IMG/VR virus record: IMGVR_UViG_3300028706_000553 | Reading direction: 5' to 3' (one strand) | Length of the DNA: 64,000 nucleotides | From: a virus | Part shown: one piece after another, positions 10,699 through 51,068 of the stretch | How positions within the stretch are numbered: position 1 is the stretch's first letter | How the letters are laid out: every line of letters begins with the position of its first letter | Notes under the pieces: model-generated | What the model saw: the letters and a program-made list of their open reading frames with translations, nothing else | Databases searched by the model: none | What the model was told of the DNA's origin: nothing | Translations under genes and position numbers: made by a program

Positions 10699-10716
10699 TA
10701 AAGAATGTTATATAAT
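10688..10716 (+). promoter_or_regulatory. consensus sigma70 promoter for gp32
   Basis: TTGACA 10688-10693, 17-bp spacer, TATAAT 10711-10716. Confidence 0.85.
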
Positions 10717-10782
10717 ATATGTTATATTATGATTAAGTGAATAAAGCGTATACAACGAAACAAAGCAGTTATAAGGAGAAAT

Positions 10783-11718: not shown

Positions 11719-11737
11719 TCATTCATTTAGTGGTCAT

Positions 11738-14041: not shown

Positions 14042-14228
14042 GTCTTTGTCTTTCTTCTTCCATACGTTGATTTTCTTCTTCTATATGTTCAATTAAGAGG
14101 GCAATATAAAGGTCTCTTTCGTAACACATCATATTTTCTATCTCAGTCAAACTCCATTTATGATTCTGTATTAGAGAAAAAATGGTTTTATAATAGTTAA
14201 CTAAACTATTGTGACTGAGTATTAACCG
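14034..14228 (-). CDS. gp51: baseplate hub assembly chaperone gp51 (not in ORF track; no proper start codon, probably reached by -1 frameshift from gp26)
   Basis: Hand translation RLILSHNSLVNYYKTIFSLIQNHKWSLTEIENMMCYERDLYIALLIEHIEEENQR...HG-stop matches the gp51 pattern HKxSLTEIENMMxxERDxY. Confidence 0.85.
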   Translation of the reverse strand, partial: RLILSHNSLVNYYKTIFSLIQNHKWSLTEIENMMCYERDLYIALLIEHIEEENQRMEEERQRHG

Positions 14229-14944: not shown

Positions 14945-14964
14945 AATATCTCCAATTCAATAAA

Positions 14965-15492: not shown

Positions 15493-16094
15493 AAGGTCCT
15501 TATCATTGCTTGACTATCCATCCAGACTTCAGATTTATCAGCTTTTCTAAAATCTTCAACAGGTAAATGTATTGCTGTAGCCCATTCATCAGCAGGAACA
15601 TGTATAAATGTGCCTGAAGAGTATGTTATATCGTATTTATGTATGGTTGGTTTAACTTCTTTATATCTAACAAAAGGTCTTATGTCGCTGTAAGAAATGT
15701 CTATATAAGTTCTTGAAGTATCCTCATTTAAATTAATCCGGACAATTAATTTTTTCATCAATGCTTCTCTTAAATGATGCGGCAGATAATGAAAATTTAT
15801 TCCTACAAAACCTCTTGACCAAGCTTCAATTGGAATAACTAACGGAAACCTATCATAATATTTTAATTTATTTTTATGCTTGGGATCATAGTTCATAAAA
15901 TACATATGACCCATTTGTATTCTGTTTTCGCCTCTAGCTAAACGAGCTTGTTCTCTGGTACCTTCTGATATAATTTTATATGGATCTTTAATTCCGCGCG
16001 ATCTACCGACGGTTAATTCCTGACGAAGGGTATTAAATTTATCCCTCAACCATACAATTGCTTCATCTGCTAGTTTTGTTAGTTTTAGTGCCAT
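15489..16094 (-). CDS. gp2: DNA end protector protein gp2
   Basis: MYFMNYDPKHKNKLKYYDRFPLV, GINFHYLP, IHKY, EWATAIHLPVEDF. Confidence 0.92.
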   Translation of the reverse strand: MALKLTKLADEAIVWLRDKFNTLRQELTVGRSRGIKDPYKIISEGTREQARLARGENRIQMGHMYFMNYDPKHKNKLKYYDRFPLVIPIEAWSRGFVGINFHYLPHHLREALMKKLIVRINLNEDTSRTYIDISYSDIRPFVRYKEVKPTIHKYDITYSSGTFIHVPADEWATAIHLPVEDFRKADKSEVWMDSQAMIRTL

Positions 16095-16097
16095 GTA

Positions 16098-16541
16098 TTA
16101 TTTAGATAATAATTGATCCTCGGTTAATATAACAAATTTCCAATTTTTCTTTTTGCAAACTGCACTTGCTGCTTTCCACTTTGCTTCATTAACCCCATAT
16201 CTTTTCATTTCTAATAAAAATCTACCAGTTTTTCGTTTTCTGCCGGTATCTTTAGGGGGAACAGTTTGTTTCTTAGGTTTTATTTCAATTAAGGAAATTT
16301 CTATAAGACCGTCATGTTTTTTAGTTTTTACCCAAAAGTCTGGATAGTATTTGTGTATTCTTCTATCAAGTGGGGATCTATATGGAATTACTACTTCTTC
16401 ACTAGCCCATTTAATAATACTTGGATTCTCATCACAATACACCATAAAGCGTCTTTCCCACAAACTTCTATAAATTATCTTAGTGGGATCACCTTTATAT
16501 TTGCTTCGATTTTTAGGTTTATACTTTCCTTTATAAGCCAT
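16098..16541 (-). CDS. gp4: head completion nuclease gp4 (TnsA-like)
   Basis: MAYKGKYKPKN..KYKGD, YRSLWERRFM, WASEE, YYPDF, IEIKP, NEAKWKAA. Confidence 0.95.
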   Translation of the reverse strand: MAYKGKYKPKNRSKYKGDPTKIIYRSLWERRFMVYCDENPSIIKWASEEVVIPYRSPLDRRIHKYYPDFWVKTKKHDGLIEISLIEIKPKKQTVPPKDTGRKRKTGRFLLEMKRYGVNEAKWKAASAVCKKKNWKFVILTEDQLLSK

Positions 16542-16551
16542 ATCAATTCGT

Positions 16552-16559
16552 TATAAATA
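16552..16559 (+). promoter_or_regulatory. T4-type late promoter for the gp48-gp53 operon
   Basis: Exact TATAAATA upstream of gp48. Confidence 0.8.
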
Positions 16560-16575
16560 ATTTAATATATTAGGC

Positions 16576-16583
16576 TATTTATA
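16576..16583 (-). promoter_or_regulatory. T4-type late promoter for the gp4-gp2-gp54-gp26 operon
   Basis: TATTTATA on the plus strand, i.e. TATAAATA on the minus strand, upstream of gp4. Confidence 0.8.
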
Positions 16584-16606
16584 CAAGAATAACAGGAATT
16601 TTTTAC

Positions 16607-17497
16607 ATGGCAATTTCAGACACAGAAAAAAATTTACAATATCCATCTGACTTAATGAAGACAACCGAACAACATTGGGTGGAGTTTACGGCCTATCCTG
16701 CGCTCTTTGGAGGAAAATATTCTCCAACATCAGATTTTTCAATAGCTCTTCCAATGAGTGCCCAAGCAATGATTAGTACTTCTGAAGCTATATACGCTGA
16801 ACAAGAGGGATTAGGAACCGTATTATCTGAAACGGCCGGTAAGGTTGCAGGTGGTTTAAAGCCATGGTTTACATCGGGCAAAGGCATAGAAAAAAATGTT
16901 GCAACTACTTTAGCTGGAATTACAAAGGATATGAATCAAAGTACTGGTGAAAGTGTAGCAGAACATGGCGTCGCACAAATGATAAGGAAAAATGATTTTT
17001 TAAAAAGAGCTGCCGGTGGTTTAAATGTTGCTATTAATCCTAAAATGTCTTTATTATATCAAGGACCTGGAAAGTTTAGAAAATTTACTTTTGAATTTCC
17101 CATGATAGCAAAATCAGCAGGTGAATCGGACATGATACAAGGTATTATAAAGAGATTTAGAATGGCAACATTACCAGGTTACACAGATTCTCATGTAACT
17201 AACGCCCAGACTTCTACGGGATCCGAAGCAAAAAGAGGAGCCGGATCAAACTTTTTTACATTTCCAAGTAAATTCAAAATTCATTTTGGTCACGGTGGAG
17301 GAACAGGAAGTTCGCTACAAGGGAAGGAAACACCCTTTAAAATAGCAGATAGTGTATGTAATGCTTGTGTGGTTAATTATGCCGCTGCCGGTATTCCATT
17401 CTTTTTTGAGAATAATCACCCGTTTGAAGTTAAGATGACCCTTACATTTACAGAAACAATAATTATGACCAAAGAGTTGGTCAATAATGGATTTTAA
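16607..17497 (+). CDS. gp48: baseplate tail-tube cap gp48
   Basis: INPKMSLLYQGP..RKFTFEF, IIKRFR, FTFPSKF, VVNY, LTFTET. Confidence 0.85.
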   Translation: MAISDTEKNLQYPSDLMKTTEQHWVEFTAYPALFGGKYSPTSDFSIALPMSAQAMISTSEAIYAEQEGLGTVLSETAGKVAGGLKPWFTSGKGIEKNVATTLAGITKDMNQSTGESVAEHGVAQMIRKNDFLKRAAGGLNVAINPKMSLLYQGPGKFRKFTFEFPMIAKSAGESDMIQGIIKRFRMATLPGYTDSHVTNAQTSTGSEAKRGAGSNFFTFPSKFKIHFGHGGGTGSSLQGKETPFKIADSVCNACVVNYAAAGIPFFFENNHPFEVKMTLTFTETIIMTKELVNNGF

Positions 17498-19876: not shown

Positions 19877-21907
19877 ATGGAAACTGACTTTATGGGCAAA
19901 GCTGGCTTTATTTGGGCCATCGGTGTTGTTGAGGATAGAAATGATCCTCTGTATCTAGGAAGATGTAAAGTAAGATACTTAGGTTGGCATACTAGAGATA
20001 AACAAGAATTACCAACAGTAGTATTACCTTGGTCATTTCCTTTAATGCCAATAACATCCGCTTCACAAACACAAGTTGGTACAAGTCCCACTGGCCCTGT
20101 TCCAGGAACTTGGGTTTTATCTTTTTTTAAAGACGGTCTAGATGCCACTGATCCAATTATGTTAGGAACATTGCCCGGTCGGCCTGATAAAGCATGTGAT
20201 CCACGTGATGGTTTTAATGATCCCCGAACTTGGCAGCCCAAACCATTTCAAGTAGATGACAACGGTGCGGTTATTGAAGGATCAGTTGAATTTAAAGATG
20301 TGCCCCAATTTCCATTAAAATTGAATCGGGTTAGGGATAAGGGCGTTGAAATTACAGAACGTACTGATGATCCTAATAAACATAAAGATAAAGATATTTG
20401 GGATTTTTCTTATAACTTTCCTAATATAAGATTTTTAAATGAACCTACTACTCCTAGATTAGCTAGGGGTTTGCAGGATACATCAGCTAAAATTCTTAAT
20501 AGAGTAAGACCAGGTCCTGGGCCTGCATCTGTAATGGTTGAAGGTAATGCAGAGTCTCCTTTACAAAATAGAAGAGATGTAAAGATGGGCAAATTTGGTA
20601 TTAGAGCTAGTGATTTTGCTGATAGGCCAACCTTCATGGAACCAGAGTCTGCATATGCCGCACAGTATCCTTATAATCATGTTCATCAGACTGAAAGTGG
20701 ACATGTTATAGAAATGGATGATACTCCAACTGCGGAAAGATTGTCTTGGACACATAGATCAGGTGCCTACCGAGAAATGGGACCAGCAGGTGATGTTGTA
20801 GATAAAGCAACCAGAGATGCGTGGTCCTGTGTTTTGAGAAACTCATATGAACAAATAAGTGGTAATAAATTTTCTTCGATAGATTATGGATATGAATTAG
20901 CTGTGGCCGCTACAGGAGGAAAAGAAGATTATTGGCTTAGAGTATGTGGTACTGGCGATGTTCATTTAGAAGCCGAAGAAGGTAACATTGAAATGTATAC
21001 TAAAAACGGCGTAACTTTTATAAATGCGAAGCGAATTGAATTTAATGCTAAAGAATATATTAGAATGTCTGCTCCGCGGATTCAACAAACAAAATTTCCA
21101 CGGAACAATCCGAGTTTAAATCCATCAGAAGCAGGAGATAAATCAGGACAGGAAGTCGAGGTAGCAGGAAATCAATCAGAAAATGTTGGCGGTGCGAAAA
21201 CAGTAAATGCTGGTCAAATTGGAATGAACACAATGGGACCTTTTACTACATCATGTCAAAGTGAATCAAAGAATATTTCTCATAGTTCAGAAACAACAGT
21301 TATGGGATTAAATATTCTTTTGGGTCAAGGTGCAGCCGGCTGGAGTACTGCAGTTCAAAATGGAATTATTAATTTAAGAAGTGCAGACGCCAAAGCTGGA
21401 ACAGGTGGAATTTTACTTCATTTAAATGAATTACCAGTTTCCAGTCCGTCATCGGCAAAGTCATCAGCGGTTGGTTATTTGTCTATTATGCCTACTGATC
21501 CAATCTCGTCGGAAATTGAATTAGCTTCGACATTTGGTAAAGTTTCTATGAAAAATAAATTCGGTGAAATAGCATTAGAAGAAGCCCCAATGGGAACCGG
21601 AGGAAATCTAAAACTAGAGACAAATGGTGTAGGCGCTGAGATGATGATGAAATCACCGATGGGAGGAATCAGTTTTGATGCAACGGGTAAGGTTAATATC
21701 TGGAATGAGGTAACTTCTTTAACGAACATAGTAAAAGTTCTCTTTAGACATCTTTTGGAACACACACACGGACATAATGATACTATTATGGGTACACCAA
21801 ACCCAATGGCCGTAACATTACCAAACGCGTTGCAACCATGGTATACAGACTTACTTACAGAACAGGCTAAACTAGATGGCTTTTTTGCGCAAAACAAGGG
21901 TTTTTAA
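19877..21907 (+). CDS. gp5: baseplate central spike gp5 (OB-fold, no lysozyme domain, C-terminal HxH)
   Basis: WAIGVVEDRNDPLYLGRCKVR..G.H, PVPGTWV..FF.DG, YPYNHVHQTESGHVIEMDDTP. Confidence 0.9.
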   Translation: METDFMGKAGFIWAIGVVEDRNDPLYLGRCKVRYLGWHTRDKQELPTVVLPWSFPLMPITSASQTQVGTSPTGPVPGTWVLSFFKDGLDATDPIMLGTLPGRPDKACDPRDGFNDPRTWQPKPFQVDDNGAVIEGSVEFKDVPQFPLKLNRVRDKGVEITERTDDPNKHKDKDIWDFSYNFPNIRFLNEPTTPRLARGLQDTSAKILNRVRPGPGPASVMVEGNAESPLQNRRDVKMGKFGIRASDFADRPTFMEPESAYAAQYPYNHVHQTESGHVIEMDDTPTAERLSWTHRSGAYREMGPAGDVVDKATRDAWSCVLRNSYEQISGNKFSSIDYGYELAVAATGGKEDYWLRVCGTGDVHLEAEEGNIEMYTKNGVTFINAKRIEFNAKEYIRMSAPRIQQTKFPRNNPSLNPSEAGDKSGQEVEVAGNQSENVGGAKTVNAGQIGMNTMGPFTTSCQSESKNISHSSETTVMGLNILLGQGAAGWSTAVQNGIINLRSADAKAGTGGILLHLNELPVSSPSSAKSSAVGYLSIMPTDPISSEIELASTFGKVSMKNKFGEIALEEAPMGTGGNLKLETNGVGAEMMMKSPMGGISFDATGKVNIWNEVTSLTNIVKVLFRHLLEHTHGHNDTIMGTPNPMAVTLPNALQPWYTDLLTEQAKLDGFFAQNKGF

Positions 21908-21921
21908 ATAAAATAACTAAT

Positions 21922-22098
21922 ATGACAAATCAAACACAGTGGGAAAAAACAACACAATTAGTTCCTCATCCAAAGGTGTTAGAACTAATGAGCAAGTTAA
22001 AACAATTAAATGATCTCGAGACTAAATTGATGACAGAATTTAAAAATGCACTAGAAAAGCAAGCGCAAGAAGGGGATAATGGCGGAACAAGAAGCTGA
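21922..22098 (+). CDS. small hypothetical protein (58 aa, not in ORF track)
   Basis: MTNQTQWEKTTQLVPHPKVLELMSKLKQLNDLETKLMTEFKNALEKQAQEGDNGGTRS fills the gp5-to-next-gene gap and overlaps the next start. Confidence 0.5.
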   Translation: MTNQTQWEKTTQLVPHPKVLELMSKLKQLNDLETKLMTEFKNALEKQAQEGDNGGTRS

Positions 22099-25000
22099 TC
22101 TAGATCAGCTTCTTTCCCGGAAAATGGTGGAACAAGAAGCTGATGAGTGGTCCTCTAGAAATTTAGGAGATATAGGTTATCTAAAGCACTTTTTTGAAGT
22201 AGCAGCAAAAGGTCTGGAACTTCATAAGGAGAACGCGGCATTTATTAAGGAGGCTTATGAATTTAATAGGGCACTTGTATTTGCTAAGGTAGATCCATTA
22301 TTTGCAGCATTAGATAAAATTTTTCAAGAAATTTTAAAACTATTAGATGATCTCAGAGGTTTAGGTTTTTATTATCTACCTGTTCATTCAAAATCAATTG
22401 GTACATCTAATGAAGTACAAAGAAATCCTGTTACAGGTGGACTATTGATTGGGGGTACATATTATGCAAAAGCAACCGCCAGTGGCATACCCGGAGAATA
22501 CAAAAAAGCTAATGTTTTTCTAGGTGACACTCCAGCTACGGATAAAGAAACAGGTGAACAAATATACGTAAAAGATACAGCATGGGAAGATCCATTTGAT
22601 GCCGACGGCAACAGCACAGGAACAGAATTAACCTTAGAGAATGCTTTTGTATATGCTAATGAGAAGTTAGGTTTAACGCAATTATCTCCAACTGGTATTT
22701 TACAAACAATTGATAGATCTTTTGACGATAAAAATGATGTCCCTAAAGGTAATACGGCTTTTACAACCGATACATCACAATTATTGTCAGAAGATTATTA
22801 TCTATCAGGCCGGCCAATATTTTCAAATTCTGCAACGGTAGGTGGAATTATTATTATAATGGGAGCACCCTCTTTTGATAAATTTGGAGATATTTTAAAA
22901 ACATTTAATAAATTTATTAATTTAGAAAGTTTTAATCAGTTAGTAGCTGATGTTAAGAAAATACTCAATCCGCCTGTCGTACATAGAATAAAGTTATCTT
23001 GGGTAAGCACCAAAACTATTGATGTGGATAGTGAGTCACCGGATTTTAATACACCGCCTTCACTTTCTGATGCTCCCGGCAAGAAAACTTATATAGAAAA
23101 AGATGATACCGTAGGTTCATTTTACAAGCACGATAAGAACGAAGATGGAACATACAAAAGCAATAGAGTTTTGAAGGCTACGGTAGGCAAATCAATAGCC
23201 CGAGTCACTAAAGTTATAACGACTGAAAACATGGTAATTGAAGATAGAGAAACGCTAGGCCATAAAGCAGATACTCATAATACCAATTTAACAGAAACAA
23301 TGATTAAAAGGAATCATCAAGAAATAAAAATAGATAGAAATTTGGTTCCTTATCAAAATCAAGAATTGGAAATTGCATATATGTCACCCGGCATGGAATT
23401 TAAAAAAGGTGATATTATTGTAGAAGCGATACCCATGACGGACTCTGGAGGTACTCAAACCGCAACCGGAGATAAAATTGATCTTAATAAACAAAATGCG
23501 GGTGATCCAGGTAAAGACAATGATAAGGAATATGTTCAAGTCACTGAGGGTGAACTTATAGTCGGAAAAGTAGTGGATGAATTCTATGCAGATGCTTTAC
23601 CTGAAAAACCAGATTGGAGAGGTAAAAGATTAGAAGAATTAATTCCACCTTTAGGTTCAGTTTTAGATACTACTGAAGCACATGTAAGAAGTATATTCGC
23701 AACTATTAAAAACTATCAGGCCAGTCTAGATCCGATTATAAAATACTTAGATGGGAAAATGGATGAACTTACGGCATTCAGTAATGAAATTGAAGAATTA
23801 TTAGAATTATTTGCTGTAGGTATTCCCGCGCTTGGTATGTACACATTATACTTGAATCCCCAATTAGGGGGCACAGCTCGTTTCAGAGAAAGAATGATGG
23901 GTGCAGGAGGACCTGATAAGCCACCTGAAAATTTAAAATTTTGTGCCGGTGTTTGTTTTTTAGGTGGTGGACCAACAGGAGGACCATTAGTTAAATCTCT
24001 TGATTTTCTTGCGTTGATGCTAGGAATGAGAAAGCCGACAGAGGAAGAGGCAGTTGCGCAATCTAGATTGGAAGAATTGGCGACTCCGCTTTTTGATGAA
24101 ACAAAAACATATATGGCCGGAGATAAAATTTATTATAAGGGCGTTAATTATATTTGTTTAGTTAATTATACAACTGGCGAAGAACCTATAATAAAAGATC
24201 TGAATGATGAAAATGTGATTAATGCAGCATATTGGGAAAGACTAGGAGAAGCTGGAGTTAAGGATGAACAAGTTACAGTTGGAGATGCAAGAACTCCTGA
24301 AGAAATAAGAAAAGCCAAAATAGATTTTTTGAAAGATACTAAAAAGGCTTTAGGTGATATTTTAGTTAAATTAAATGGGGCTTCACCTGGTGCATCAAGT
24401 TTAAGAAAGAAGATTATGGATGTTCCTCTTTATGGAGCAATGGATCCACTGCAATCACCACCAGCGTTTATTTCATCTGGTGCAAATGAATCCACTTTTA
24501 ATGATCTTCTAAACTTAAGAGATATGGATTTAGAAGAGTTAGATTTATTGGTTTATAGAATCACAGAAATGTTGGTTTCAGTGGAAATTACAATGATTCA
24601 AGAAACACCAGATGTAGACACAGAACCTGGTAGTTTTAGATCAAAAGGGAAATCGTTACTTATTTTAAAAGGTGAATTTATAGATGAAGTTGATGATTTT
24701 GAAGGGGGACAAAGAAAGGTTAAACCAAATACAACTATTACTATTCTTGATCCTCTCAATCCAGGTTCTGGTTCAACAAGAACTGTAGAACGTATGTCAA
24801 ATACAACAGTGGCCGTTCTTAATGAACCATTTGAACCAGATATAGAAACTGCACTGGCTTATGATGTAATTTTAACTGATCAAAATGAAACTGAATATAA
24901 GTATAAGTCCGAATATAGAGCAAATAATACACACTATTATCATCCAGGATATAGATTACGTGAATTTGAAGCCAAGGCAAATACTATTTCAACTTATTCA

Positions 25001-25540
25001 AAAGTTGATGTAGCGGGTAATTATATAGATATACCTGAGTATGAAGCCGGGAACCCGAAAGGTTCCGGGTTCGACAACAAACCGCGAAATGTTAATGAAT
25101 ACCCGCTTGGTACCATTATAGAAATAAATGGAACTGTACCACAATCAGAAGGATATGTTGGTGGGGGTGGAATAGAAGTATTATTAGAAGAAGAAGAACA
25201 GGTGGCAGAGACATGGAATGCGATTGGTGTTTCACAGGATGATGTCTTAATTGTAACTCTTGATACAGGAGTATTTACTAAGTATATTCAAGAAGTTCTT
25301 GATGATACACATATAGCAATTGATTCCGCCATTCAAGCAGGGGGAGATGCTCCGTATCAAACCTTGTTATATCATTCTGATTGGGATTTTGAATTATCAA
25401 TCGGCAAAAAACAAGTAAAGGCCCAAGACGATAAGATACAGAGTAGTAAGAATAAATTTCTTGATTATTTGAATGATATTAATGCTCAGGCAGATGAGAT
25501 TTATGATTACTTGGATAAATTGAATAACGAGGGTTGGTAA
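22079..25540 (+). CDS. large putative virion/baseplate protein with CBM5/12-like module
   Basis: 1153 aa within the baseplate cluster; FDETKTYMAGDKIYYKGVNYICL...YWERL (about 24086-24243) resembles chitin-binding type 3 modules. Confidence 0.55.
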   Translation: MAEQEADLDQLLSRKMVEQEADEWSSRNLGDIGYLKHFFEVAAKGLELHKENAAFIKEAYEFNRALVFAKVDPLFAALDKIFQEILKLLDDLRGLGFYYLPVHSKSIGTSNEVQRNPVTGGLLIGGTYYAKATASGIPGEYKKANVFLGDTPATDKETGEQIYVKDTAWEDPFDADGNSTGTELTLENAFVYANEKLGLTQLSPTGILQTIDRSFDDKNDVPKGNTAFTTDTSQLLSEDYYLSGRPIFSNSATVGGIIIIMGAPSFDKFGDILKTFNKFINLESFNQLVADVKKILNPPVVHRIKLSWVSTKTIDVDSESPDFNTPPSLSDAPGKKTYIEKDDTVGSFYKHDKNEDGTYKSNRVLKATVGKSIARVTKVITTENMVIEDRETLGHKADTHNTNLTETMIKRNHQEIKIDRNLVPYQNQELEIAYMSPGMEFKKGDIIVEAIPMTDSGGTQTATGDKIDLNKQNAGDPGKDNDKEYVQVTEGELIVGKVVDEFYADALPEKPDWRGKRLEELIPPLGSVLDTTEAHVRSIFATIKNYQASLDPIIKYLDGKMDELTAFSNEIEELLELFAVGIPALGMYTLYLNPQLGGTARFRERMMGAGGPDKPPENLKFCAGVCFLGGGPTGGPLVKSLDFLALMLGMRKPTEEEAVAQSRLEELATPLFDETKTYMAGDKIYYKGVNYICLVNYTTGEEPIIKDLNDENVINAAYWERLGEAGVKDEQVTVGDARTPEEIRKAKIDFLKDTKKALGDILVKLNGASPGASSLRKKIMDVPLYGAMDPLQSPPAFISSGANESTFNDLLNLRDMDLEELDLLVYRITEMLVSVEITMIQETPDVDTEPGSFRSKGKSLLILKGEFIDEVDDFEGGQRKVKPNTTITILDPLNPGSGSTRTVERMSNTTVAVLNEPFEPDIETALAYDVILTDQNETEYKYKSEYRANNTHYYHPGYRLREFEAKANTISTYSKVDVAGNYIDIPEYEAGNPKGSGFDNKPRNVNEYPLGTIIEINGTVPQSEGYVGGGGIEVLLEEEEQVAETWNAIGVSQDDVLIVTLDTGVFTKYIQEVLDDTHIAIDSAIQAGGDAPYQTLLYHSDWDFELSIGKKQVKAQDDKIQSSKNKFLDYLNDINAQADEIYDYLDKLNNEGW

Positions 25541-25993: not shown

Positions 25994-27880
25994 ATGGCAA
26001 CAGATGTAGCGAAATTAAATGTTTCAGAACTGGACATGCCGGCTATCAAATCCAACATGATAGCCTTTTTAAAAAGTCAAAGTGAATTCGCAAATTTTGA
26101 CTTTGCAGGTTCAGGATTGGATGTAATAATGGATATGCTAGCATATAATACTTATTATAATTCATTTTATTTAAATATGTTAGCAAATGAAATGTTTTTA
26201 GATACTGCGGAACTTAGAAATTCTGTTGTACAGAAAGCCAAACAGATGGGTTATACACCTCGATCTGTTCAAGGAACAAAGGCAATAGTTACATTGCAGA
26301 TAACTCCTAGTGATCAAGCAACCACAATGGTTGTAGAAAAAGATAAAAGATTTTCTGCTACTATAGATCAGGACAAATATATTTTTACTACTGCGGATTC
26401 GTATAATGCTATAATTGGTTCCAATGGAAGATTCACGGTTCCCGATGTACAGTTGAATCAAGGTATAAGGTTAACTCACAAATATGCAGTTGATTATTCT
26501 AACAAAGAGCAAAAATTTCTTTTACCTAATCCACAGACTGATGTTACAACATTAGAGGTTACTGTAAAGGCTTCACCGACTTCTACAATTATAGATACCT
26601 ATACAAAGGTAACAGACACAGTTAAAGTAACAGCAACATCTAAAGTATTTTTCTTATATGAAGAATTTGATGGTAGATATGAAGTACAATTTGGAGATAA
26701 TAAAGTAGGAGCGCGTCCAGCTGATGGAAGCCAAGTTATTTTAACAACAAATATTTCTGATGGCCAAGTTACAAATAAAGCCGCAACTTTTCAAGCTATT
26801 GATTTAATAGGAGGATATGCGGATGTTCAAGTAGTAACTACAACCGCTGGTTATGGTGGTGCTGTAAGGGAATCAATAGAAGAAATAAAATACGGTGCGC
26901 CTAAATTATATGAAACTCAAAATAGAGCAGTTACATTAAATGATTATAAAAGAATTGTAGAAAATGAATGGGTTAATGCAGAGTCAGTAACATGTTGGGG
27001 CGGAGAACAAAATGATCCGCCAAGATATGGAAAAGCGTATATTGCAGTAAAACCCAAGAGTGGATTATACTTAACATCAAAAGATAAAAATGCAATTAAA
27101 ACTGATATATTATTAAGAAAGAATATGGTTTCTGTAACACCAGAGATTGTTGCTCCTGATTATCTTTATCTAAAAATTACTTCAGATGTTAGATATGATC
27201 CAAATAAAACTATTCAATCTGCAGATCAAATAGGATCAAATATTGTTAATGTGGCTCTAAATTATAATCAAAATGAATTAGGAAAATTTGATTTGAGATT
27301 CAGGTATTCACGATTAACTACTTTAATTGATAATACAGATCCAGCCATTTTAAATAACCAAACAACTGTTCTTTTATTTAAGAGATTGGTGGTAGAATTA
27401 GCACAAGCTTTCAACTACGCACAGAATTTTTCGAATCAATTAAAATATCCATACGTTGGTTATAAAGGAACATTGACTTCTTCAAAATTTCAATATATTA
27501 ATGAATCAACAGAAGTTGTAGAAACTGGATGTACATTATCTGATGCAGATGGTATTATTCAAGTTGTAAAAGAAGCAGCCGGCGAAGTTGCAGTTATTAA
27601 TACTAATGTTGGGACGTTAGATTATACTACAGGTAAGATGACTTTGGTATCATTTAAACCTATAACAGTTGAAGCTGTTGTAAATAATAATACAATTGAA
27701 ATATTTGTGCAAACTAATGTATTGGATATAACACCTATAAGAGAACAAGTTATTATAGTTGAAAAGAAAGATATCCAAATTAATATGATGACCGATACTT
27801 CATTAAGTACAGGTGATTTCCAAATGGCAACATCTGATGAAACCCCCGCGCAGGTAATTTTTGGAGCTAATACTGCATAA
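25994..27880 (+). CDS. gp6: baseplate wedge subunit gp6
   Basis: ELD...IKSNM..FLK.Q.EF..FDF.GSGL, LAYNTYYN, NEMFLDTA, QNRAVT..DY, WGGEQNDPP.YGK.YIA.KP. Confidence 0.96.
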   Translation: MATDVAKLNVSELDMPAIKSNMIAFLKSQSEFANFDFAGSGLDVIMDMLAYNTYYNSFYLNMLANEMFLDTAELRNSVVQKAKQMGYTPRSVQGTKAIVTLQITPSDQATTMVVEKDKRFSATIDQDKYIFTTADSYNAIIGSNGRFTVPDVQLNQGIRLTHKYAVDYSNKEQKFLLPNPQTDVTTLEVTVKASPTSTIIDTYTKVTDTVKVTATSKVFFLYEEFDGRYEVQFGDNKVGARPADGSQVILTTNISDGQVTNKAATFQAIDLIGGYADVQVVTTTAGYGGAVRESIEEIKYGAPKLYETQNRAVTLNDYKRIVENEWVNAESVTCWGGEQNDPPRYGKAYIAVKPKSGLYLTSKDKNAIKTDILLRKNMVSVTPEIVAPDYLYLKITSDVRYDPNKTIQSADQIGSNIVNVALNYNQNELGKFDLRFRYSRLTTLIDNTDPAILNNQTTVLLFKRLVVELAQAFNYAQNFSNQLKYPYVGYKGTLTSSKFQYINESTEVVETGCTLSDADGIIQVVKEAAGEVAVINTNVGTLDYTTGKMTLVSFKPITVEAVVNNNTIEIFVQTNVLDITPIREQVIIVEKKDIQINMMTDTSLSTGDFQMATSDETPAQVIFGANTA

Positions 27881-34540: not shown

Positions 34541-36268
34541 ATGCCGGCTTTAGTAACAAATAAATTTAGAATGTTCAATGCAAAGCAGTTTCGAGAGTCT
34601 TTTGACGAAGATTCCGGAATGACAACATTTGCGAACACAGTCGCGGGCGATACATACTTAGAATCTAATATGTATCTTTTCATCGGTGGTGTCCAGAACT
34701 GGGCTAATGTAGCAGGAGCCGCGGCAGCAGACAACGACACAACACCCCCTACACCCACCGATTCAGTATCAAATACTTATTATAATCATTGGAAAGATAT
34801 GATCGCAGCTAAAAAGGTTGTATCTACTGATGTGACACATTGTATTCCTAGATATAATTGGGCTAACAATACATCTTATTTTGCTTATGATAATACGCAA
34901 AATGCTATGCTTGCCAATACCTTTTATGTCATGACAGATGAATATAATGTATATAAGTGTTTAGCAAACAATAACACTGGTGGAACAAGTGTTGCAAAAC
35001 CAACAGGTCAAGCAGCAACTATTGTTACACCTGGATCAGATGGATATAAGTGGAAGTATATGTTCACAATTTCGGCCGCATCGGCTTTGAAATTTGTAAC
35101 CACTAATTATATTCCTGTACAACAAGTACGTTATCAGAATACTGTTATGGCATCGGCCACACAGGAAAACACCTTACAACGTGCTGTTGAAAATGCAGCT
35201 GTTGATGGTGCTATCAATATCTATAGAAAAACAGCTAACGGAACAGTTGGTGGAGCTGAATATTTAATTTTTGAAACCAACACATTGGATAACGGTTTTG
35301 GTAGTGCATATTCACATACTACTACTTCCGTACGTATTCATAGTACCGCAAGTGCTGCTGATGATGTTTATGTCGGTTCAGATATATTCTTTACATCAGG
35401 AAATGCAGAAGGACAAGGTGGAACTATTACAGATTATAATGGTACTACAAAAGTAGTTACCTTCGCGCCAGCAGTTTCATCTGCGGCCGCACAAAGTGAT
35501 AGTTTTCAAATTGCACCTAGATTACAAATATTAGGTGATGGAAGCGGAGCAAATTGTAGATCAAACGGAACTAATACTTCTGGTTTAACTGATGTTATAA
35601 CAATTGCCGCAGGTTCTGGATATACAAATGCAGCTGTTAGTGTTTTAGCTAATAGTTCTTGGAATACAGATGATGCCACAGTTCAAGCTGTTATCGAACC
35701 AAAAGGCGGTCATGGATTTGATGCCACAGAAGAATTAGGTGGATATAACGTTATGGTTAACGTTAGACTTGAAAATGATGAGTCCGGAGAATTTACAGTA
35801 GCCAATGATTTTAGAAAAATTGGTTTAATTTCACATCCGAACGCAGCTAATACAACTAATGATAATGATCTTGCTATACCAGCAACTATTTCATTGGCTG
35901 ACCAGGCACTTAGAGTTACAGTGCAATCTTTTTCAGGTTCTGCATATTCATCAGACCAATTAGTAACAGGTTCAGTATCAGGTGCAACAGGAAGAGTAGT
36001 TGACTGGACTTCAGGAACAAGTAAATTGAGAATGTCTCAAGTTACAAAAGGTTCAAATACTTCAAACGGATGGGATGGAACACCAGGTTCTTTTCAAGCT
36101 AACGAAGCGTTGACGGTTTCTGGAGGTGGAACAACCGCTAATACAAGTGCTATTGAAGGACCTGACTTGAAACAATATACTGGTGATATTCTATATGTTG
36201 AAAATAGATCACCAATTTCAAGAGCTAGTGACCAAATCGAAGATGTTAAGTTAATAATTAACTTCTAA
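34541..36268 (+). CDS. gp8: baseplate wedge subunit gp8
   Basis: MPALVTNKFRMFNAKQF, YVMTDEYNVYKCLANN, DGYKWKYMFTI, EPKGGHG, GDILYVENRSPI.RA.DQIED.K. Confidence 0.93.
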   Translation: MPALVTNKFRMFNAKQFRESFDEDSGMTTFANTVAGDTYLESNMYLFIGGVQNWANVAGAAAADNDTTPPTPTDSVSNTYYNHWKDMIAAKKVVSTDVTHCIPRYNWANNTSYFAYDNTQNAMLANTFYVMTDEYNVYKCLANNNTGGTSVAKPTGQAATIVTPGSDGYKWKYMFTISAASALKFVTTNYIPVQQVRYQNTVMASATQENTLQRAVENAAVDGAINIYRKTANGTVGGAEYLIFETNTLDNGFGSAYSHTTTSVRIHSTASAADDVYVGSDIFFTSGNAEGQGGTITDYNGTTKVVTFAPAVSSAAAQSDSFQIAPRLQILGDGSGANCRSNGTNTSGLTDVITIAAGSGYTNAAVSVLANSSWNTDDATVQAVIEPKGGHGFDATEELGGYNVMVNVRLENDESGEFTVANDFRKIGLISHPNAANTTNDNDLAIPATISLADQALRVTVQSFSGSAYSSDQLVTGSVSGATGRVVDWTSGTSKLRMSQVTKGSNTSNGWDGTPGSFQANEALTVSGGGTTANTSAIEGPDLKQYTGDILYVENRSPISRASDQIEDVKLIINF

Positions 36269-44198: not shown

Positions 44199-45668
44199 AT
44201 GGCATCACCGTTAAAGGTTATAAATTCTGGATCGGATCTTCAACAAATGACCGATGCAGAAATAGACAATATGATAGTTCCTCTTGTTTTGCAGGAGTTC
44301 GCCTCTAATCAAACATACAATGTTCGAGGTAACGTAACTGCATATGCAAACAACTCTGGGAACGCCGGCGGATTTGATAATAGACTCCGAAATGATGATG
44401 TAGGAGATCATCCTATTTCAGCTGGCAATTTCACTACAACTTCCTGGTCTATTCAACAAGAGCAGTCCAACGCTGCTGGAACTACAAATGTAATTTATCC
44501 CACTAAGTGGGTTACATCTGGTGGTAAGTTGCAGCGAATGACTACTGCTGAATTACAAACTACTATTTTAGCTAGAGTTGCTAATCATTGGAAAACAACT
44601 ACCTATCCCGTTGGTGGTTATTATTTTGGTACTGCTGCACCCGATGCAGATACATGGATTTATTGTGGTGATGTTCTAACAGAAACTTATAGACAAACCG
44701 GTACAGATAGTTCAACTGATTTTAAGTTATGGAGAAAAACAGGGCCAACCTCCACTTCTGGTTCAAGACCTGTTTATAATAGAACAGGTAATGATGGCGT
44801 CCAGGAATTGTCCGATAATGATATGAAATCGTTAGCGGCAGAATGGAGAAACTATCTATTTAATGTTGAATCTATTGGTCATTATGAAATGGTTTCCGGT
44901 TCATCAGCACCAGGAACAGGTACTTGGACACAAGTAGGAAGTTATGTAGATTATTTAACGGATACAGGTAATGTAATATATTCTCAAGGATACGAAGGAA
45001 TATATTCAGCTGGTTATGAAGGAATATATTCTAATCAATATGAGGGATTGTATTCCGGACAATTTACAGGAATGTATTCAGGACAATTTACTGGTATATA
45101 TTCAGGGCAGTTTGCAGGTATATATTCGCGAGGTTATGAAGGATTCTATTCACAAGGATATTCCGGTGGTTATGGAGGTGGTTACCAGGGACCATATGTA
45201 GGTTCTTATCGATCAGGATTTATGGGTGATTATCGTGGTGACTATGAAGGAAGTTATATAATGACCTATGGATCAGGTAGTGAAGAAGGATTAAACCCTA
45301 GAGCTTCATCTGAAGGTCCTGCATATACTGGCACATATTCAGGTACATTTTCAGGAATTTATTCCGGTACATTTTCAGGAATTTATTCTGGGGTATATTC
45401 AGGAATTTATTCAGGACAATATTCAAATCAATATGCCGGCTTTTTTTCAAATCAATATGAAGGCATTTATTCACAAGGTTACCAAGGAATATATTCTGGA
45501 GGATTTGAAGGCATTTATTCATCAGGTTTTGAAGGTTTTTATAGTATGTTTTATGTTGGAATTTATAGTAATCAATATACTGGAATTTATAGTAATCAAT
45601 ATACAGGTTTAACAGTGCTATCATCATTAGGTTCTGCAACGTACACATTTTGGAAGAGGGTTGCGTAA
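44199..45668 (+). CDS. fibre-associated protein with xGx[YF] tetrapeptide repeats (paralog 1)
   Basis: C-terminal half is about 49 tetrapeptide units; shares LQQMTDAEID/IRQMTNDQID, VGDHP and YxxWKR with the next gene. Confidence 0.75.
   Translation: MASPLKVINSGSDLQQMTDAEIDNMIVPLVLQEFASNQTYNVRGNVTAYANNSGNAGGFDNRLRNDDVGDHPISAGNFTTTSWSIQQEQSNAAGTTNVIYPTKWVTSGGKLQRMTTAELQTTILARVANHWKTTTYPVGGYYFGTAAPDADTWIYCGDVLTETYRQTGTDSSTDFKLWRKTGPTSTSGSRPVYNRTGNDGVQELSDNDMKSLAAEWRNYLFNVESIGHYEMVSGSSAPGTGTWTQVGSYVDYLTDTGNVIYSQGYEGIYSAGYEGIYSNQYEGLYSGQFTGMYSGQFTGIYSGQFAGIYSRGYEGFYSQGYSGGYGGGYQGPYVGSYRSGFMGDYRGDYEGSYIMTYGSGSEEGLNPRASSEGPAYTGTYSGTFSGIYSGTFSGIYSGVYSGIYSGQYSNQYAGFFSNQYEGIYSQGYQGIYSGGFEGIYSSGFEGFYSMFYVGIYSNQYTGIYSNQYTGLTVLSSLGSATYTFWKRVA
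44974..45606 (+). repeat. 12-nt-period degenerate tandem repeat encoding xGx[YF] units, split by a central non-repeat turn
   Basis: 25 aromatic-terminated units, then GSGSEEGLNPRASSEGPA, then 24 units. Confidence 0.85.
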
Positions 45669-47503
45669 TGGCTACTGACGGAAGGGTAATGAGAATCTAT
45701 CCACTGGGTAGTAACACAGAATTAGCCGCAACAGAAAGTGGAAAATTATATATAGGGTCAGTAACTGAAACCGGTTCCGGAGCTTCTGCTAATATTGGTA
45801 AAATTACAACTATTACATCTACACCGGGAGCTGGAGTATATGATAATGTATTTTCAGCCGGCGATTATCTTGTTATTAGACATCAACAATATGGAATGTT
45901 AGGTGTTGGTCAATGGATTAAAGTTCAATCTGTTTCAAGTACGGGAGCCAGTACAGAATTAACTTTAGAAGATGGTACTGCAGAATTTTACAAATATTTA
46001 AATTCATCCGGAGCAAGTTATACAGGACAAACTAGCGTAGGTATTACATTTGAAAAGGTAATGGGTTGGGGTATTAGACAAATGACCAACGACCAAATTG
46101 ATGATTCCATAGTTCCAGAAGTTTTTAATAGATGGGGATCCTATACAAAAGGAACTGCAACACATGATGATTGGAAAAGTCATATAAGACCTTTAGCTGG
46201 TACTTCTAATACATCTGGTTATGATTTATGTGGAACTGTTGGTGAAAGATATAGAAGCCCAGATGTTGTAGGCGATCATCCAGTAGCAAATAATGTAACT
46301 ATAACTAATTATTCATTAGAACAATGTGTTGGAACAAAGCCTTTTAACGGCGCATCAAATGCAACACATGTTGATGATTTAGATAGCACTGTAGAATTTT
46401 TAGGTGCTAATACAGGTGGATCTCACGGCGATAAAGTATACGAAATGTCAGACGCAGACATTGCGGCCGGCCCTGTTATTGCTAGGTGTAATGCATATTT
46501 TACTTCAGCATCAAATACTGTTGGTTCTTATCATATTGGAACTGCTGTGGGAGATTCAGATACTGGTTCTTGGCATGATGAAACATGGTATACAGATACA
46601 GTAATAACATCGTCAGGTTCAGCAAACGTTGCATATCATCTTTATAGAAAAGAATCAGGAGCGGTTAGAGGATGGTCAACTTCAAGATCTTTATCAAATG
46701 CTAATACAGAAGCAAGAGCCTCAAATTCTGTTACACATTGGACTGGTGCTAATGCTGACTATATTGCTGTAGGAAATTATCCACGTGCAGCAACGGATGA
46801 GGTAATATACTTACCAATTTATAATCAAGGTAATAATCAAGCTAAAGAATCAAATACTGTTCAAGCCTATGGACATTCTGCAACTTTACAAAATACTGCA
46901 GATGATGCTGGTATACATTTGCATTGGATTAAACATTTATTGATATCAAATGCTGGTGAATATAGTTTAGTAACAGGTAATACAGCTCCTGGAATTGGTA
47001 CATGGTCATTTTGTGGTAATGTATATGATAAAGTTACAACAGTTGGGGATGTAATATATTCTCAAGGATATGAAGGAATTTATTCTGCAGCATATGAAGG
47101 CATTTATTCATTAGGATATGAAGGCATTTATTCATCCGGATTTCAAGGTGGATATGCTGGTGGATATGCTGGTGGATATGCTGGTGGATATGCTGGTGGT
47201 TACGCCGGTGGATACACTCAAACTTATGGATCTATGGCTGAGTCTCCAAACCCACGGACTTCCTCAGAAGGTCCTACATACTCTGGAACTTATTCAGGCA
47301 CTTATTCTGGAACGTATTCAGGCACTTATTCTGGAACGTATTCAGGCATATTTTCGGCTGGCTTTATTGGAATTTATAGTAATCAATATGGTGGAATATA
47401 TTCTGGACAATATGCTGGATTCTATAGTAATCAATATACTGGAGTAACGGTATTTTCTACTTTAGAAACACAAAATTATAGTCTTTGGAAAAGACACGCC
47501 TAA
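45668..47503 (+). CDS. fibre-associated protein with xGx[YF] tetrapeptide repeats (paralog 2)
   Basis: ATG at 45668 overlapping the previous stop (ORF track starts at 45650); same domain motifs with a shorter repeat array. Confidence 0.75.
   Translation: MATDGRVMRIYPLGSNTELAATESGKLYIGSVTETGSGASANIGKITTITSTPGAGVYDNVFSAGDYLVIRHQQYGMLGVGQWIKVQSVSSTGASTELTLEDGTAEFYKYLNSSGASYTGQTSVGITFEKVMGWGIRQMTNDQIDDSIVPEVFNRWGSYTKGTATHDDWKSHIRPLAGTSNTSGYDLCGTVGERYRSPDVVGDHPVANNVTITNYSLEQCVGTKPFNGASNATHVDDLDSTVEFLGANTGGSHGDKVYEMSDADIAAGPVIARCNAYFTSASNTVGSYHIGTAVGDSDTGSWHDETWYTDTVITSSGSANVAYHLYRKESGAVRGWSTSRSLSNANTEARASNSVTHWTGANADYIAVGNYPRAATDEVIYLPIYNQGNNQAKESNTVQAYGHSATLQNTADDAGIHLHWIKHLLISNAGEYSLVTGNTAPGIGTWSFCGNVYDKVTTVGDVIYSQGYEGIYSAAYEGIYSLGYEGIYSSGFQGGYAGGYAGGYAGGYAGGYAGGYTQTYGSMAESPNPRTSSEGPTYSGTYSGTYSGTYSGTYSGTYSGIFSAGFIGIYSNQYGGIYSGQYAGFYSNQYTGVTVFSTLETQNYSLWKRHA
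47051..47440 (+). repeat. 12-nt-period tandem repeat (AGGY x5 / SGTY x5) around a central turn
   Basis: gctggtggatat tandem copies and tattcaggcacttattctggaacg x2; 15 units, then GSMAESPNPRTSSEGPT, then 14 units. Confidence 0.85.
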
Positions 47504-48910: not shown

Positions 48911-49707
48911 AACATACAGAACATATTACTAATTTTTGTAATGATCCAGATATTTTAAATATTTTAGAAGAACTTGGTGAATATTTAGACGGTTTAGATT
49001 TAGATGCAATGAAACTTCGACCAGGGCGTCAAAATAAACCTGAAATGAATGCTGTCATTTCAGATAATTATTTAAGTACATTTAGAAAAACAGTTAGGCC
49101 AGGACCTCCTTGGCATCAAAAAATAGTAGATCTTCTATTAGATTTAAAACAAAGAAAACGTAATACAAAAGTAGCAGACCTGGCAACTGCTTTAGGAAAA
49201 AGAATAGGAGCAAGAAAACAGGCTCTCAGTGCAATATATCCTCCAGGTGGCTATGTTGGGTGGCATACTAATGCAGATGTTCCGGGTAGAAATTTATTAT
49301 TTACTTGGTCTCAAAAAGGTGAAGGTGTTTTAAGATATAAGAATCATACAAAAGGATTCTCTTTTGATATACCTGATCACAAAGGTTGGAATATAAAATC
49401 ATTTGATTGGTTTAGTCATGGTCAATCTGAAAAGGAAGGATATACATGGCATGCTGCAGGATCAAATTGTTTAAGAGCAACCCTTGCTTTTGTTATTCAT
49501 AATAATCCAATGTCCAACGAAATGTTAGAGGATGACTTCAATTTAACATCTTGGAGTCCGGGTTGCTTTATAAGTGATACTGATTTAAAATATGAATCTA
49601 AGTGGTGGGAGAATACTAAAGATAGTATTATCAATTATGAATTAAGTGATGAATTAATAAGTGAACTTGAAACAAGCCCTTCAGGTGTAAAATATGGTCC
49701 TCGATAA
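48907..49707 (+). CDS. 2OG-Fe(II) oxygenase-like / cupin protein (HxN variant)
   Basis: YPPGGYVGWHTN...WHAAGSNCLR, a double-stranded beta-helix ligand pattern. Confidence 0.5.
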   Translation: MKHTEHITNFCNDPDILNILEELGEYLDGLDLDAMKLRPGRQNKPEMNAVISDNYLSTFRKTVRPGPPWHQKIVDLLLDLKQRKRNTKVADLATALGKRIGARKQALSAIYPPGGYVGWHTNADVPGRNLLFTWSQKGEGVLRYKNHTKGFSFDIPDHKGWNIKSFDWFSHGQSEKEGYTWHAAGSNCLRATLAFVIHNNPMSNEMLEDDFNLTSWSPGCFISDTDLKYESKWWENTKDSIINYELSDELISELETSPSGVKYGPR

Positions 49708-50281
49708 GAAATCCCCTTATATAAGAATTCAAAGTGGATGGTTTAAAAAGAATAAAGATAAGATTATTAAAGAATTTGAACCTTTAGTTGAAGAAGGAAC
49801 GACTGTAGGTGGAAATAAAAACGAAAAAAGAAAATCAGATGTTCATCTTTTTGATATTTGGAGATTAGAATTAACTGATTTTAAAAAAGTTATTATTTTT
49901 AAAGTTAAAGAGATATTTACTACAGAAAATAAAAATTATGGATTTGATTTAGATTATTCTACTGTAAATATTCAATTTACTAGATATCAAAAAGATGATT
50001 TTTATGAATGGCATGCAGATGATGATTTACTGAATACACATATAAAAACACATAGTATAAGAAAATTAAGTATGGCAATGCCTTTAAATATTGGTGAATT
50101 TGAAGGTGGTGAATTTGAAATTAAATTATCCCCAAGTGAAAATGCAAAAACAAGAAAAATACCTATAGAGCCTGGAAATATAATAGTATTTCCTAGTTTC
50201 TTAGAGCATAGAGTCCTCCCAATAACCTCAAATACACGTTATTCTTTAGTGGCGTGGATCTCAGGACCTCCATGGAGATAA
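49694..50281 (+). CDS. 2OG-Fe(II) oxygenase (prolyl-hydroxylase-like family)
   Basis: QFTRY, YEWHAD (HxD), RKLS, FEGGEF, IVFPSFLEHRVLPITSNTRYSLVAW. Confidence 0.9.
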   Translation: MVLDKKSPYIRIQSGWFKKNKDKIIKEFEPLVEEGTTVGGNKNEKRKSDVHLFDIWRLELTDFKKVIIFKVKEIFTTENKNYGFDLDYSTVNIQFTRYQKDDFYEWHADDDLLNTHIKTHSIRKLSMAMPLNIGEFEGGEFEIKLSPSENAKTRKIPIEPGNIIVFPSFLEHRVLPITSNTRYSLVAWISGPPWR

Positions 50282-50324: not shown

Positions 50325-51068
50325 ATGGCAAAACCGCAAACTCGCGAACAATTAAAACAATACTGCCTCAGAAGTTTAGGTCACCCAGTTATAGAAGTTA
50401 ATGTTGATGACGATCAATTAGAAGATCGCATTGACGAAGCTTTACAAGTCTGGAATGACTATCATTATGATGGGTCGGAAAAAATTTATTTAAAACATCA
50501 AGTTACATCAGATGATATTACTAACGAATATATTACCGTTGGGGAATCAACTATAAGTATAATCAAAGTACATCCTATTGATTCAACAACAGGAAACATT
50601 AATATGTTTGATGTGAGATATCAATTAAGATTAAATGATATATTTGATTTGAGTAAACAGCAGCTTTCAGGATATACTATGGCTATGCAACACTTGAGTT
50701 TAATAGAAAATTTATTTAATCAATCTCCTTCTTTCAGATTTAATAGACATACAGATAAAGTTTATCTTGATGTTGATTGGGATAAAGAATTGGTTGTTGG
50801 AAAATACTTATTATTTGAATGTTATAAATCCGTAGACCCAGAAGAATTGACCGATGCATATAATGATCTTTGGCTAAAAAAATATATATCTTCATTATTT
50901 AAAAGACAATGGGGATCTAATCTATTAAAATATGAAGGTATGCAATTACCCGGTGGCACTACATTAAATGGTAGACAAATTTTTGATGATGCAACAACTG
51001 AATTACAAATGTTGGATGATGAAATCTTTACGAAGTATCAATTACCTGACGACTTTATGGTAGGATAA
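50325..51068 (+). CDS. gp13: neck protein gp13
   Basis: MAKPQTREQLKQYCLRSLG.PVIEVNVDDDQLEDRIDEAL, KRQWGSNLLKYEGMQLPGG.TLNG. Confidence 0.96.
   Translation: MAKPQTREQLKQYCLRSLGHPVIEVNVDDDQLEDRIDEALQVWNDYHYDGSEKIYLKHQVTSDDITNEYITVGESTISIIKVHPIDSTTGNINMFDVRYQLRLNDIFDLSKQQLSGYTMAMQHLSLIENLFNQSPSFRFNRHTDKVYLDVDWDKELVVGKYLLFECYKSVDPEELTDAYNDLWLKKYISSLFKRQWGSNLLKYEGMQLPGGTTLNGRQIFDDATTELQMLDDEIFTKYQLPDDFMVG

Follow-up and report, generated by a model that had tools for sequence, protein, structure and literature searches.

Two tandem fibre-like genes of a marine T4-like myophage and their putative length-matched hairpin stalks

The tip of the T4 long tail fibre is formed by gp37, an obligate trimer whose six-stranded needle carries iron ions on His-x-His motifs and is built without short tandem repeats. 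The needle domain (PDB 2XGF), reportedly described by Bartual et al. in 2010, may be regarded as the nearest known functional analogue of the element considered here, a putative hairpin stalk at the C-terminal ends of two adjacent paralogous proteins (paralog 1 and paralog 2), encoded at positions 44199-47503 of a stretch of 64,000 nucleotides (nt), hereafter the window, from the virus record IMGVR_UViG_3300028706_000553. As in gp37, the element would form the distal part of a myophage fibre in which the chain runs out to a tip and back to its own domain, with tip loops at the hairpin turn and a length that comes from the paired outgoing and returning strands; unlike gp37, it contains no His and no Cys, and so no His-x-His motifs, and it has a strict period of four residues. 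The reading favoured here, to which we give a probability of about 0.72, is that both paralogs end in a hairpin stalk folded back within a single chain, that selection keeps the two arms of the stalk equal, and that the paralogs are structural proteins of the host-recognition cluster of a T4-like marine myophage. The course out to the tip and back that is typical of gp37 is seen in the strands that flank the array in paralog 2, in the hairpin modelled for a short-armed homolog (P0153) and in a turn that lies at the midpoint between two anchor tryptophans.

Other known systems resemble the stalk in part. The gp38 of phage S16 has a polyglycine-II sandwich as its adhesin tip, with Gly at every third residue and polyproline II (PPII) helices. 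It shares with the hairpin stalk a repetitive, Gly-rich make-up, a place at the distal tip of a T4-like phage fibre and a gene that neighbours the fibre gene, but in the stalk Gly and aromatic residues repeat every 4 and 8 residues and the model is one of beta-strand. Collagen-like or polyglycine-II repeats can be ruled out as the basis of the arrays, as Gly is not found at every third residue. The triple-stranded beta-helix of the T4 gp5C and gp12 type consists of one unidirectional run of octapeptide repeats without any fold-back, and it is ruled out by the mirror register of the arms, the central turn and the return of the C-terminus to the base.

A further, weak likeness is to the MABP-type beta-prisms, which were the top rows (2qp2, 8b6v, 3tow, 6sb1, 6u23) of a structure-only search with P0153 (VIA wide), at Z scores of 4.2-6.1 and root-mean-square deviations of 3.7-5.4 Å over 110-120 residues, where a Z below 8 may mean only a common arrangement. 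The MABP systems compared (perforin-2/MPEG1 P2, the Plu-MACPF C-terminal domain and the MVB12B MABP) share with P0153 a long hairpin of two strands that stands out from a compact, multi-lobed and beta-rich base, and in MPEG1 it is the tip of the hairpin that contacts the target membrane. They differ from the hairpin proteins in that there is no sequence similarity between them and in that the MABP hairpins are short and non-repetitive.

Neither paralog has a family match in Pfam or PHROGs. Foldseek searches of the PDB found nothing for the models of paralog 2 and P0153, the weak rows to the stems of pore-forming toxins probably reflecting long-hairpin geometry only, and a Foldseek search of BFVD with the P0153 model gave no meaningful match. 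Neither paralog 1 nor the family profile A2 found a match in sequence searches of the PDB, ESM Atlas gave no usable match, and the literature searched held no description of such a repeat hairpin. The gp37 needle itself is absent among the Foldseek and VIA rows and was not matched in the PDB sequence searches, and the BFVD model of a T4 gp37 fragment stood only at rank 26 against P0153, a weak match (E-value 0.38, template modelling (TM) score 0.11). The original prediction, which was made from the DNA letters without database searches, had recognised no described fold, and Pfam, PHROGs, Foldseek against the PDB, VIA, BFVD and the PDB sequence searches have likewise supplied neither family nor fold. 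Pfam, PHROGs, the PDB, BFVD and the literature searched cover nothing like this fibre stalk. Its length varies among relatives in both arms at once, which points to an undescribed, length-adjustable kind.

Balanced arms around a central turn

When the arrays are cut after each Tyr or Phe, 25 units precede the turn and 24 follow it in paralog 1, with 15 and 14 in paralog 2, where five AGGY units of the left arm face five SGTY units of the right arm. Both arrays are bracketed by VIYSQGYEGIY at the start and SNQYTG.TV...Y.[FL]WKR.A at the end. The counts, the mirrored blocks and the common brackets are all as the original prediction had them. It had also described the arms as keeping an n/n-1 balance; the counts hold, but the difference of one unit is a convention of counting, as arms measured from repeat-independent anchors have exactly the same number of residues. 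These anchors are the Trp of the last G-x-W motif and the Trp of the C-terminal LW.R motif, the sum of their positions being S, and counted from them there are 114 residue pairs in paralog 1 (W243/W485) and 74 in paralog 2 (W452/W613).

Residues of paralog 2 are numbered here from a TTG at 45650, which gives 617 amino acids (aa), although the true start is most likely the ATG at 45668 and not this TTG chosen by the open reading frame (ORF) finder. The stop codon of paralog 1 and the ATG of paralog 2 overlap as TAATG. The TTG is probably not a start because the ESM Atlas record of paralog 2 begins at residue 7 of the TTG-numbered ORF and because the two genes of the related locus L002 abut in the same manner.

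Once relatives are counted the balance of the arms appears to be far beyond chance. A close clade was defined as every sequence with a YGS...NP[RQ]... turn, including the members of ten clusters at 90% identity, which gave 146 distinct full arrays. The n/n-1 balance is kept in 135 of them, in eight sizes (9/8, 11/10, 12/11, 15/14, 16/15, 21/20, 22/21 and 25/24). One 12/11 variant was found within an 11/10 cluster at 90% identity and, to judge from the sequences, marks a recent matched gain in both arms, and in related genomes the same gene pair occurs with different arm counts that are again balanced (L002, for one, has 22/21 and 11/10).

The same is apparent at greater distance. A second set was made up of 44 proteins outside the close clade that have arrays of 60-320 residues and exactly one turn signature, that is two aromatics followed by G/S-G ([YF][YF]-G/S-G) with no Gly before them. 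The two-residue turn lies exactly at the midpoint of the anchors in 23 of the 44, against 0.42 expected at random, and is no more than 2 residues off in 36. The 23 proteins with an exact midpoint cover 19 array lengths, from 65 to 317, and each different length would have needed changes in both arms. The mirror register, in which the left aromatic i faces the right aromatic S-i+1, is the best of the four phases in 110 of 177 proteins and is true for 87-88% of the left-arm aromatics in the window paralogs, and in a distant homolog (P0025) irregular units of 5-8 residues lie opposite each other across the predicted axis. Co-variation of the arm counts in homologs had been named beforehand as the check on the hairpin, and it is borne out by the 135 balanced arrays of the close clade and the 23 midpoint turns of the distant set.

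Within both arrays 92-93% of aromatics have another aromatic at lag 4, and lags 2, 3, 5 and 6 give 0-8%; for Gly on Gly, the recurrence is 0.23-0.28 at lag 3, rising to 0.48-0.56 at lag 4 and to 0.66-0.67 at lag 8. Aromatics make up 23-25% of the arrays, together with 23-25% Gly and 15% Ser; the count of His and Cys is 0 in both.

In the DNA of paralog 2 the AGGY block is a repeat at 47147-47214 (period 12, 5.7 copies, 92% matches, 68 nt) and the SGTY block a repeat at 47282-47348 (period 24, 2.8 copies, 97% matches, 67 nt), the two blocks being distinct slippage products of different periods and near-equal spans. Each arm had been thought to be an independent 12-nt repeat; the repeats of paralog 2 are indeed separate, but the period of 12 applies to the left block and that of the right block is 24. 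An origin of the arrays by tandem duplication of one half-array is rejected, as the arms use different DNA repeat periods, and it is also countered by P0025, in which the flank lengths form mirror images (12 / block / 6 and 5 / block / 12 units) and do not recur in the same order. An artefact of assembly is rejected too, since identical balanced forms occur on tens of independent contigs.

Predicted fold and strand register

The AlphaFold2 model of P0153, made with 40 homologs, has a mean predicted local distance difference test (pLDDT) score of 91.4 and a predicted TM score (pTM) of 0.82. It consists of three beta-beta-alpha-beta-beta-beta modules, and its last two strands form a single hairpin with a strand at 238-270, a break at 271-272 (the GG of ..LYY-GG-RN..) and a strand at 273-314. 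The anchors W231 and W312 predict a centre at (231+312)/2 = 271.5, and the turn of the model is exactly there. The antiparallel pairing of the arms that was first proposed from the letters is supported both by the co-variation of the arms and by this model, with its turn at the predicted residue. At the end of module 2 of P0153 there is a short hairpin, likewise bracketed by G-T-W ... L-W-x-K, and for this reason the stalk looks like an expansion of a hairpin present in every module. By homology, the long arms in the window would fold as those of the short homolog do.

For paralog 2 itself an AlphaFold2 model based on a 42-sequence alignment has moderately well modelled modules, and the strands that flank the array, 452-466 and 602-615, are confident (pLDDT ~71-91). 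A strand homologous to the closing strand of paralog 1 is confidently modelled in both paralog 2 and P0153. The model of paralog 2 is consistent with an array that loops out of the last module and has both its ends together there. Repeat residues account for 99 of the pairs counted from the anchors in paralog 1 and for 59 in paralog 2. A beta-strand rises by 3.3-3.4 Å per residue, and the repeat stalk would be ~33 nm long in paralog 1 and ~20 nm long in paralog 2.

The anchors also set the register of the strands, in which each Tyr would lie opposite position 3 of a unit in the partner arm, a position taken by Gly or Ile in the left arm and by Gln/Thr or Phe/Ile in the right arm. Because each Tyr faces position 3 of its partner, there would be two tyrosine ladders, one on each face of the ribbon; the proximal 8-residue repeat bears Ile/Phe as well. 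The aromatic ladders of the original prediction survive in this form, but they would lie on opposite faces, and a ladder of Tyr-Tyr pairs across the strands is rejected. The tip, which had been given as NPRxSSEGP, has to be redrawn: PNPR is in the loop, but the free loop by register is of only ~12-13 residues, G-S-x-x-E-x-P-N-P-R-x-S, and SEGP probably belongs to the returning strand, where it would pair with the last unit of the left arm.

It is possible to propose how such a protein is built. The body of each paralog would be a set of ~100-residue alpha/beta modules, each closing with a small beta-hairpin bracketed by G-x-W and L-W-x-R/K, and in the last module slippage of 12- and 24-nt repeats, which code for tetrapeptides with a final Tyr or Phe, would have lengthened this hairpin. 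The chain would exit this module as one beta-strand, turn in a loop of 12-13 residues with P-N-P-R at its apex, and return antiparallel and in register until its C-terminal strand closes the sheet of the same module. The tyrosines of each arm would overlie small residues (Gly/Ser/Thr, or Ile/Phe) of the partner strand, on opposite faces. As the strands have to remain in register, one arm could differ by a gained or lost unit only for a short time before the other followed, a compensatory evolution of length like that of an RNA stem. The putative function of the stalks, and a likely one, is to hold a conserved tip loop out from the baseplate region, at two distances, so that it can touch the host surface.

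If true, abundant ocean phages use a fibre element that lies outside the structural and family databases, with a stalk that can be lengthened or shortened one unit at a time, given joint change of both strands. It would then show clearly, in a protein, how two tandem repeats can evolve in length by compensating for each other, and it might serve as a scaffold where rods of a set length are wanted. The carriage of two paralogs per genome, with different lengths and the same tip loop, suggests that reach matters in the probing of host surfaces. The rule that the turn is the midpoint of the two anchor Trp could also be used to annotate hundreds of proteins that are still without a name and that marine myophages encode in their host-recognition clusters.

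Weighing the hairpin against other arrangements

A number of observations weigh against hairpins with arms held equal. Homologs with unbalanced arms, which the original prediction had named as the evidence that would speak against it, do exist as a minority, with 11 of the 146 close-clade arrays unbalanced, usually by one or two units. A 24/21 form was found in four distinct sequences on four contigs and is probably real; the remainder are 9/10 (twice) and 20/21, 16/14, 12/8, 25/18 and 20/9 (once each), the cases seen on a single contig being possible assembly collapses. An arm surplus of 8 residues would keep the Tyr phase, because the period is four residues, and a larger tip loop could absorb it. 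The constraint on balance is strong but not absolute. P0038, a relative of paralog 2 from a cluster of 7 members, lacks the NP[RQ] tip loop, and its array is of 17 uninterrupted units with the midpoint of the anchors between ..EGIYS and LGFE.., so that either the hairpin turns without a dedicated loop or P0038 is a deletion product. In arrays longer than ~320 residues the detection of anchors and turn fails, through tip domains or misplaced anchors, which limits the claims of balance to shorter arrays, and relatives are not independent of each other, which makes the probabilities indicative only. On the structural side, the pairing of the arms is read from DSSP strands and the position of the turn, not from contacts, and the distal arms of P0153 have a pLDDT of only 61-69. 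Monomer models had been put forward as a check at the outset, and they bear out the prediction for P0153, with its one confident hairpin, but the array of paralog 2 (residues 467-601) has a pLDDT of 23-32 and yields no usable model of the long arms.

The fold-back hairpin could also exist in another quaternary structure, with three hairpins bundled into a six-stranded rod like that of gp37. Phage fibres are usually trimers, and a lone two-stranded ribbon of 20-33 nm would be unusually thin. Tyr on both faces of the ribbon, with Ile/Phe in the proximal repeat, would leave a face for packing, and the failure of monomer AlphaFold2 on the long arms is often seen with obligate oligomers. Set against this, the arrays without His or Cys offer no HxH metal sites, similarity to gp37 in sequence or fold was not found (the BFVD model of a gp37 fragment ranked low), and the monomer model of P0153 is confident, its three modules forming a compact base, at the pTM given above. 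Such a trimeric needle, which is a sub-case of the hairpin reading, is considered unlikely though by no means far-fetched.

Within the same hairpin reading, the stalk may stand free as a two-stranded beta-ribbon of one chain, tens of nm long and without a hydrophobic core, that is stapled by Tyr on both faces, has its length set digitally by matched counts of tetrapeptides through compensatory slippage, and is folded or modified by the products of three accessory genes. This would be a new class of fibrous protein, a proposal that is put forward tentatively and with more doubt than confidence.

The arms might instead pair with other subunits, domain-swapped or in a cross-beta arrangement, or form a solenoid, equal lengths then serving only to return the C-terminus to the base. 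Co-variation of the arms taken alone needs no more than that both ends meet at the base, and a triple of units, 12 residues, could in principle form one coil of a solenoid. However, the turn lies exactly at the midpoint of the anchors, the mirror register holds residue by residue over many array lengths, the irregular units of P0025 are opposed across the axis, and AlphaFold2 builds a hairpin within one chain for P0153, all of which makes pairing between chains or a solenoid very improbable. It is hardly credible that the arrays are disordered, sticky low-complexity regions of Tyr, Gly and Ser whose symmetry is a by-product of repeat copying, despite a composition that resembles adhesive or phase-separating sequences and the low pLDDT in the array of paralog 2, as disorder would not constrain length to balance in 135 of 146 arrays of eight sizes, copying cannot account for equal arms made from DNA repeats of different period, the aromatics keep strictly to lag 4, and the C-terminal strand that docks on the base is conserved.

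Relatives and neighbouring genes

Relatives of the hairpin proteins number 453 clusters at 50% identity in an exhaustive search (E-values up to 0.001), or 84 by a word-based search, and almost all come from marine metagenomes. Four features are common to the family: N-terminal modules of ~100 residues with an M[TS]DAE[IL] helix, the G-x-W motif, the period-4 aromatic array and a C-terminal strand G.T[IV]...LW.R.A. Both window paralogs carry all four. The sole relative from a cultured or named phage is in phage C48C1 (L001, OQ984149; Kyanoviridae), which was also the only match of paralog 1 by tblastn against 50,697 phage records; P0153 had no match in the same records. The C48C1 protein is of 3,348 aa (7983-17425) and has the same starting modules, then >2,000 residues of Tyr/Phe-periodic arrays rich in R/T/S that are interrupted by several non-repetitive globular stretches, which suggests that domains can be carried on such stalks.

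Coordinates of the hairpin paralogs, their parts and the neighbouring genes in the window (residue numbers of paralog 2 from the TTG)
Feature	Position	Strand	Remarks
Paralog 1	44199..45668	+	ORF; 489 aa; three alpha/beta modules, then hairpin stalk
Paralog 1, N-side anchor Trp243	44925..44927	+	G-T-W; hairpin base; matching Trp invariant in alignments A1 and A2
Paralog 1, outgoing arm	44973..45269	+	residues 259-357; VIY and 24 tetrapeptides ending Y/F, 25 units
Paralog 1, tip region	45270..45323	+	residues 358-375, 18 residues (GSGSEEGLNPRASSEGPA); loop proper ~358-370 by anchor register
Paralog 1, returning arm	45324..45602	+	residues 376-468; Y and 23 tetrapeptides, 24 units
Paralog 1, closing strand	45603..45665	+	TG.TV...YTFWKRVA; C-side anchor Trp485 (codon at 45651)
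Paralog 2	45668..47503	+	611 aa from ATG 45668; extra N-terminal beta domain, modules, hairpin stalk
Paralog 2, N-side anchor Trp452	47003..47005	+	first residue of strand 452-466; AlphaFold2 model, anchor register
Paralog 2, outgoing arm	47051..47227	+	residues 468-526; VIY and 14 tetrapeptides, 15 units, five AGGY
Paralog 2, tip region	47228..47278	+	residues 527-543, 17 residues (GSMAESPNPRTSSEGPT); loop proper 527-538 by anchor register
Paralog 2, returning arm	47279..47437	+	residues 544-596; Y and 13 tetrapeptides, 14 units, five SGTY
Paralog 2, closing strand	47438..47500	+	anchor Trp613 (codon at 47486); AlphaFold2 strand 602-615, pLDDT 71-87
gp5-like hub	19877-21907		upstream of hairpin genes
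gp6	25994-27880		upstream of hairpin genes
Wedge protein, 2210 aa			upstream of hairpin genes, listed between gp6 and gp8
gp8	34541-36268		upstream of hairpin genes
VrlC/DUF4815 protein, 2045 aa	36290-42427		upstream of hairpin genes
Fibre-like protein, 511 aa	42643..44178	+	directly upstream of hairpin genes; C-terminus ..YDSSGTRLGP (FGIYDSSGTRLGP)
Three accessory genes, 193 / 277 / 266 aa	47536..49707	+	directly after hairpin genes; constant order in 7/7 related loci
2OG-Fe(II) oxygenase	49694-50281		between accessory genes and gp13; PF13640, E-value 3e-13; phrog_61
gp13	50325-51068		downstream of hairpin genes

The virus record that holds the window is of 167,436 bp and is rated complete by CheckV. 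The hairpin paralogs are located between VrlC and the neck genes, and in pelagimyophages the stretch from VrlC to gp14 has been described as a hypervariable 'host recognition cluster', in which the genes that follow VrlC encode tail fibres in the majority of genomes (PMC7029224). The closest relatives of the VrlC protein of the window are those of the Pelagibacter phages HTVC008M and Mosig and the Methylophilales phage Melnitz, at 33-35% identity. Further upstream, between the gp5-like hub and gp6, is a protein of 1153 aa (22079-25540) that has no PHROG match and only a sub-threshold hit to CBM_5_12 (E-value 1.9e-4).

Seven related loci were compared, including relatives down to 26-30% identity, and their gene order is gp8, VrlC, a small gene, a fibre-like gene, one or two hairpin-family genes and three accessory genes; in these loci as in the window, the family sits after VrlC and the fibre gene and before the accessory genes. 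The positional counterpart of the 511-aa fibre-like protein in C48C1 is annotated as a 'tail fiber protein', and a sequence match between the two was looked for and not found. In the window and in all the related loci but L006, thus in six of seven, the gene next upstream of the hairpin genes has an ending like ..YDSSGTR[LI][GN](P). It is near-identical (..[YF][DN][ST][ST]GTR[LI][GN]) in L002, L005, L012, L014 and L015 and looser (..YYANGTIAWPA) in L013. Proteins with this type of ending range from 166 to 851 aa, the ending being kept even where the remainder is unrelated in length, and it may be a docking motif.

Homologs of the 193-, 277- and 266-aa accessory genes in the related loci are 27-80% identical to those of the window. 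Nothing credible was found for them in Pfam (E-values up to 10) or PHROGs, nor in PDB searches with a single protein (the 277-aa gene only) and with 4-sequence profiles (the 277- and 266-aa genes). Of their alignments, A3 keeps Y-x-D-x-D and A4 keeps W-H-x-N ... H-x-A, patterns that at most hint at two enzymes, one glycosyltransferase-like and one cupin/oxygenase-like. Because the trio is in constant company with the hairpin genes, a putative role in the assembly or modification of the stalk can be guessed at. The 2-oxoglutarate (2OG)-Fe(II) oxygenase that follows is found in the close relative L002 and in none of the six more distant loci, and so lies outside the conserved set.

Tandem pairs of hairpin-family genes also occur in distant relatives, at 13958-16096 in L012 (554 and 712 aa) and at 12541-15606 in L013 (836 and 1021 aa), and it seems common for one genome to encode two stalks that differ in length.

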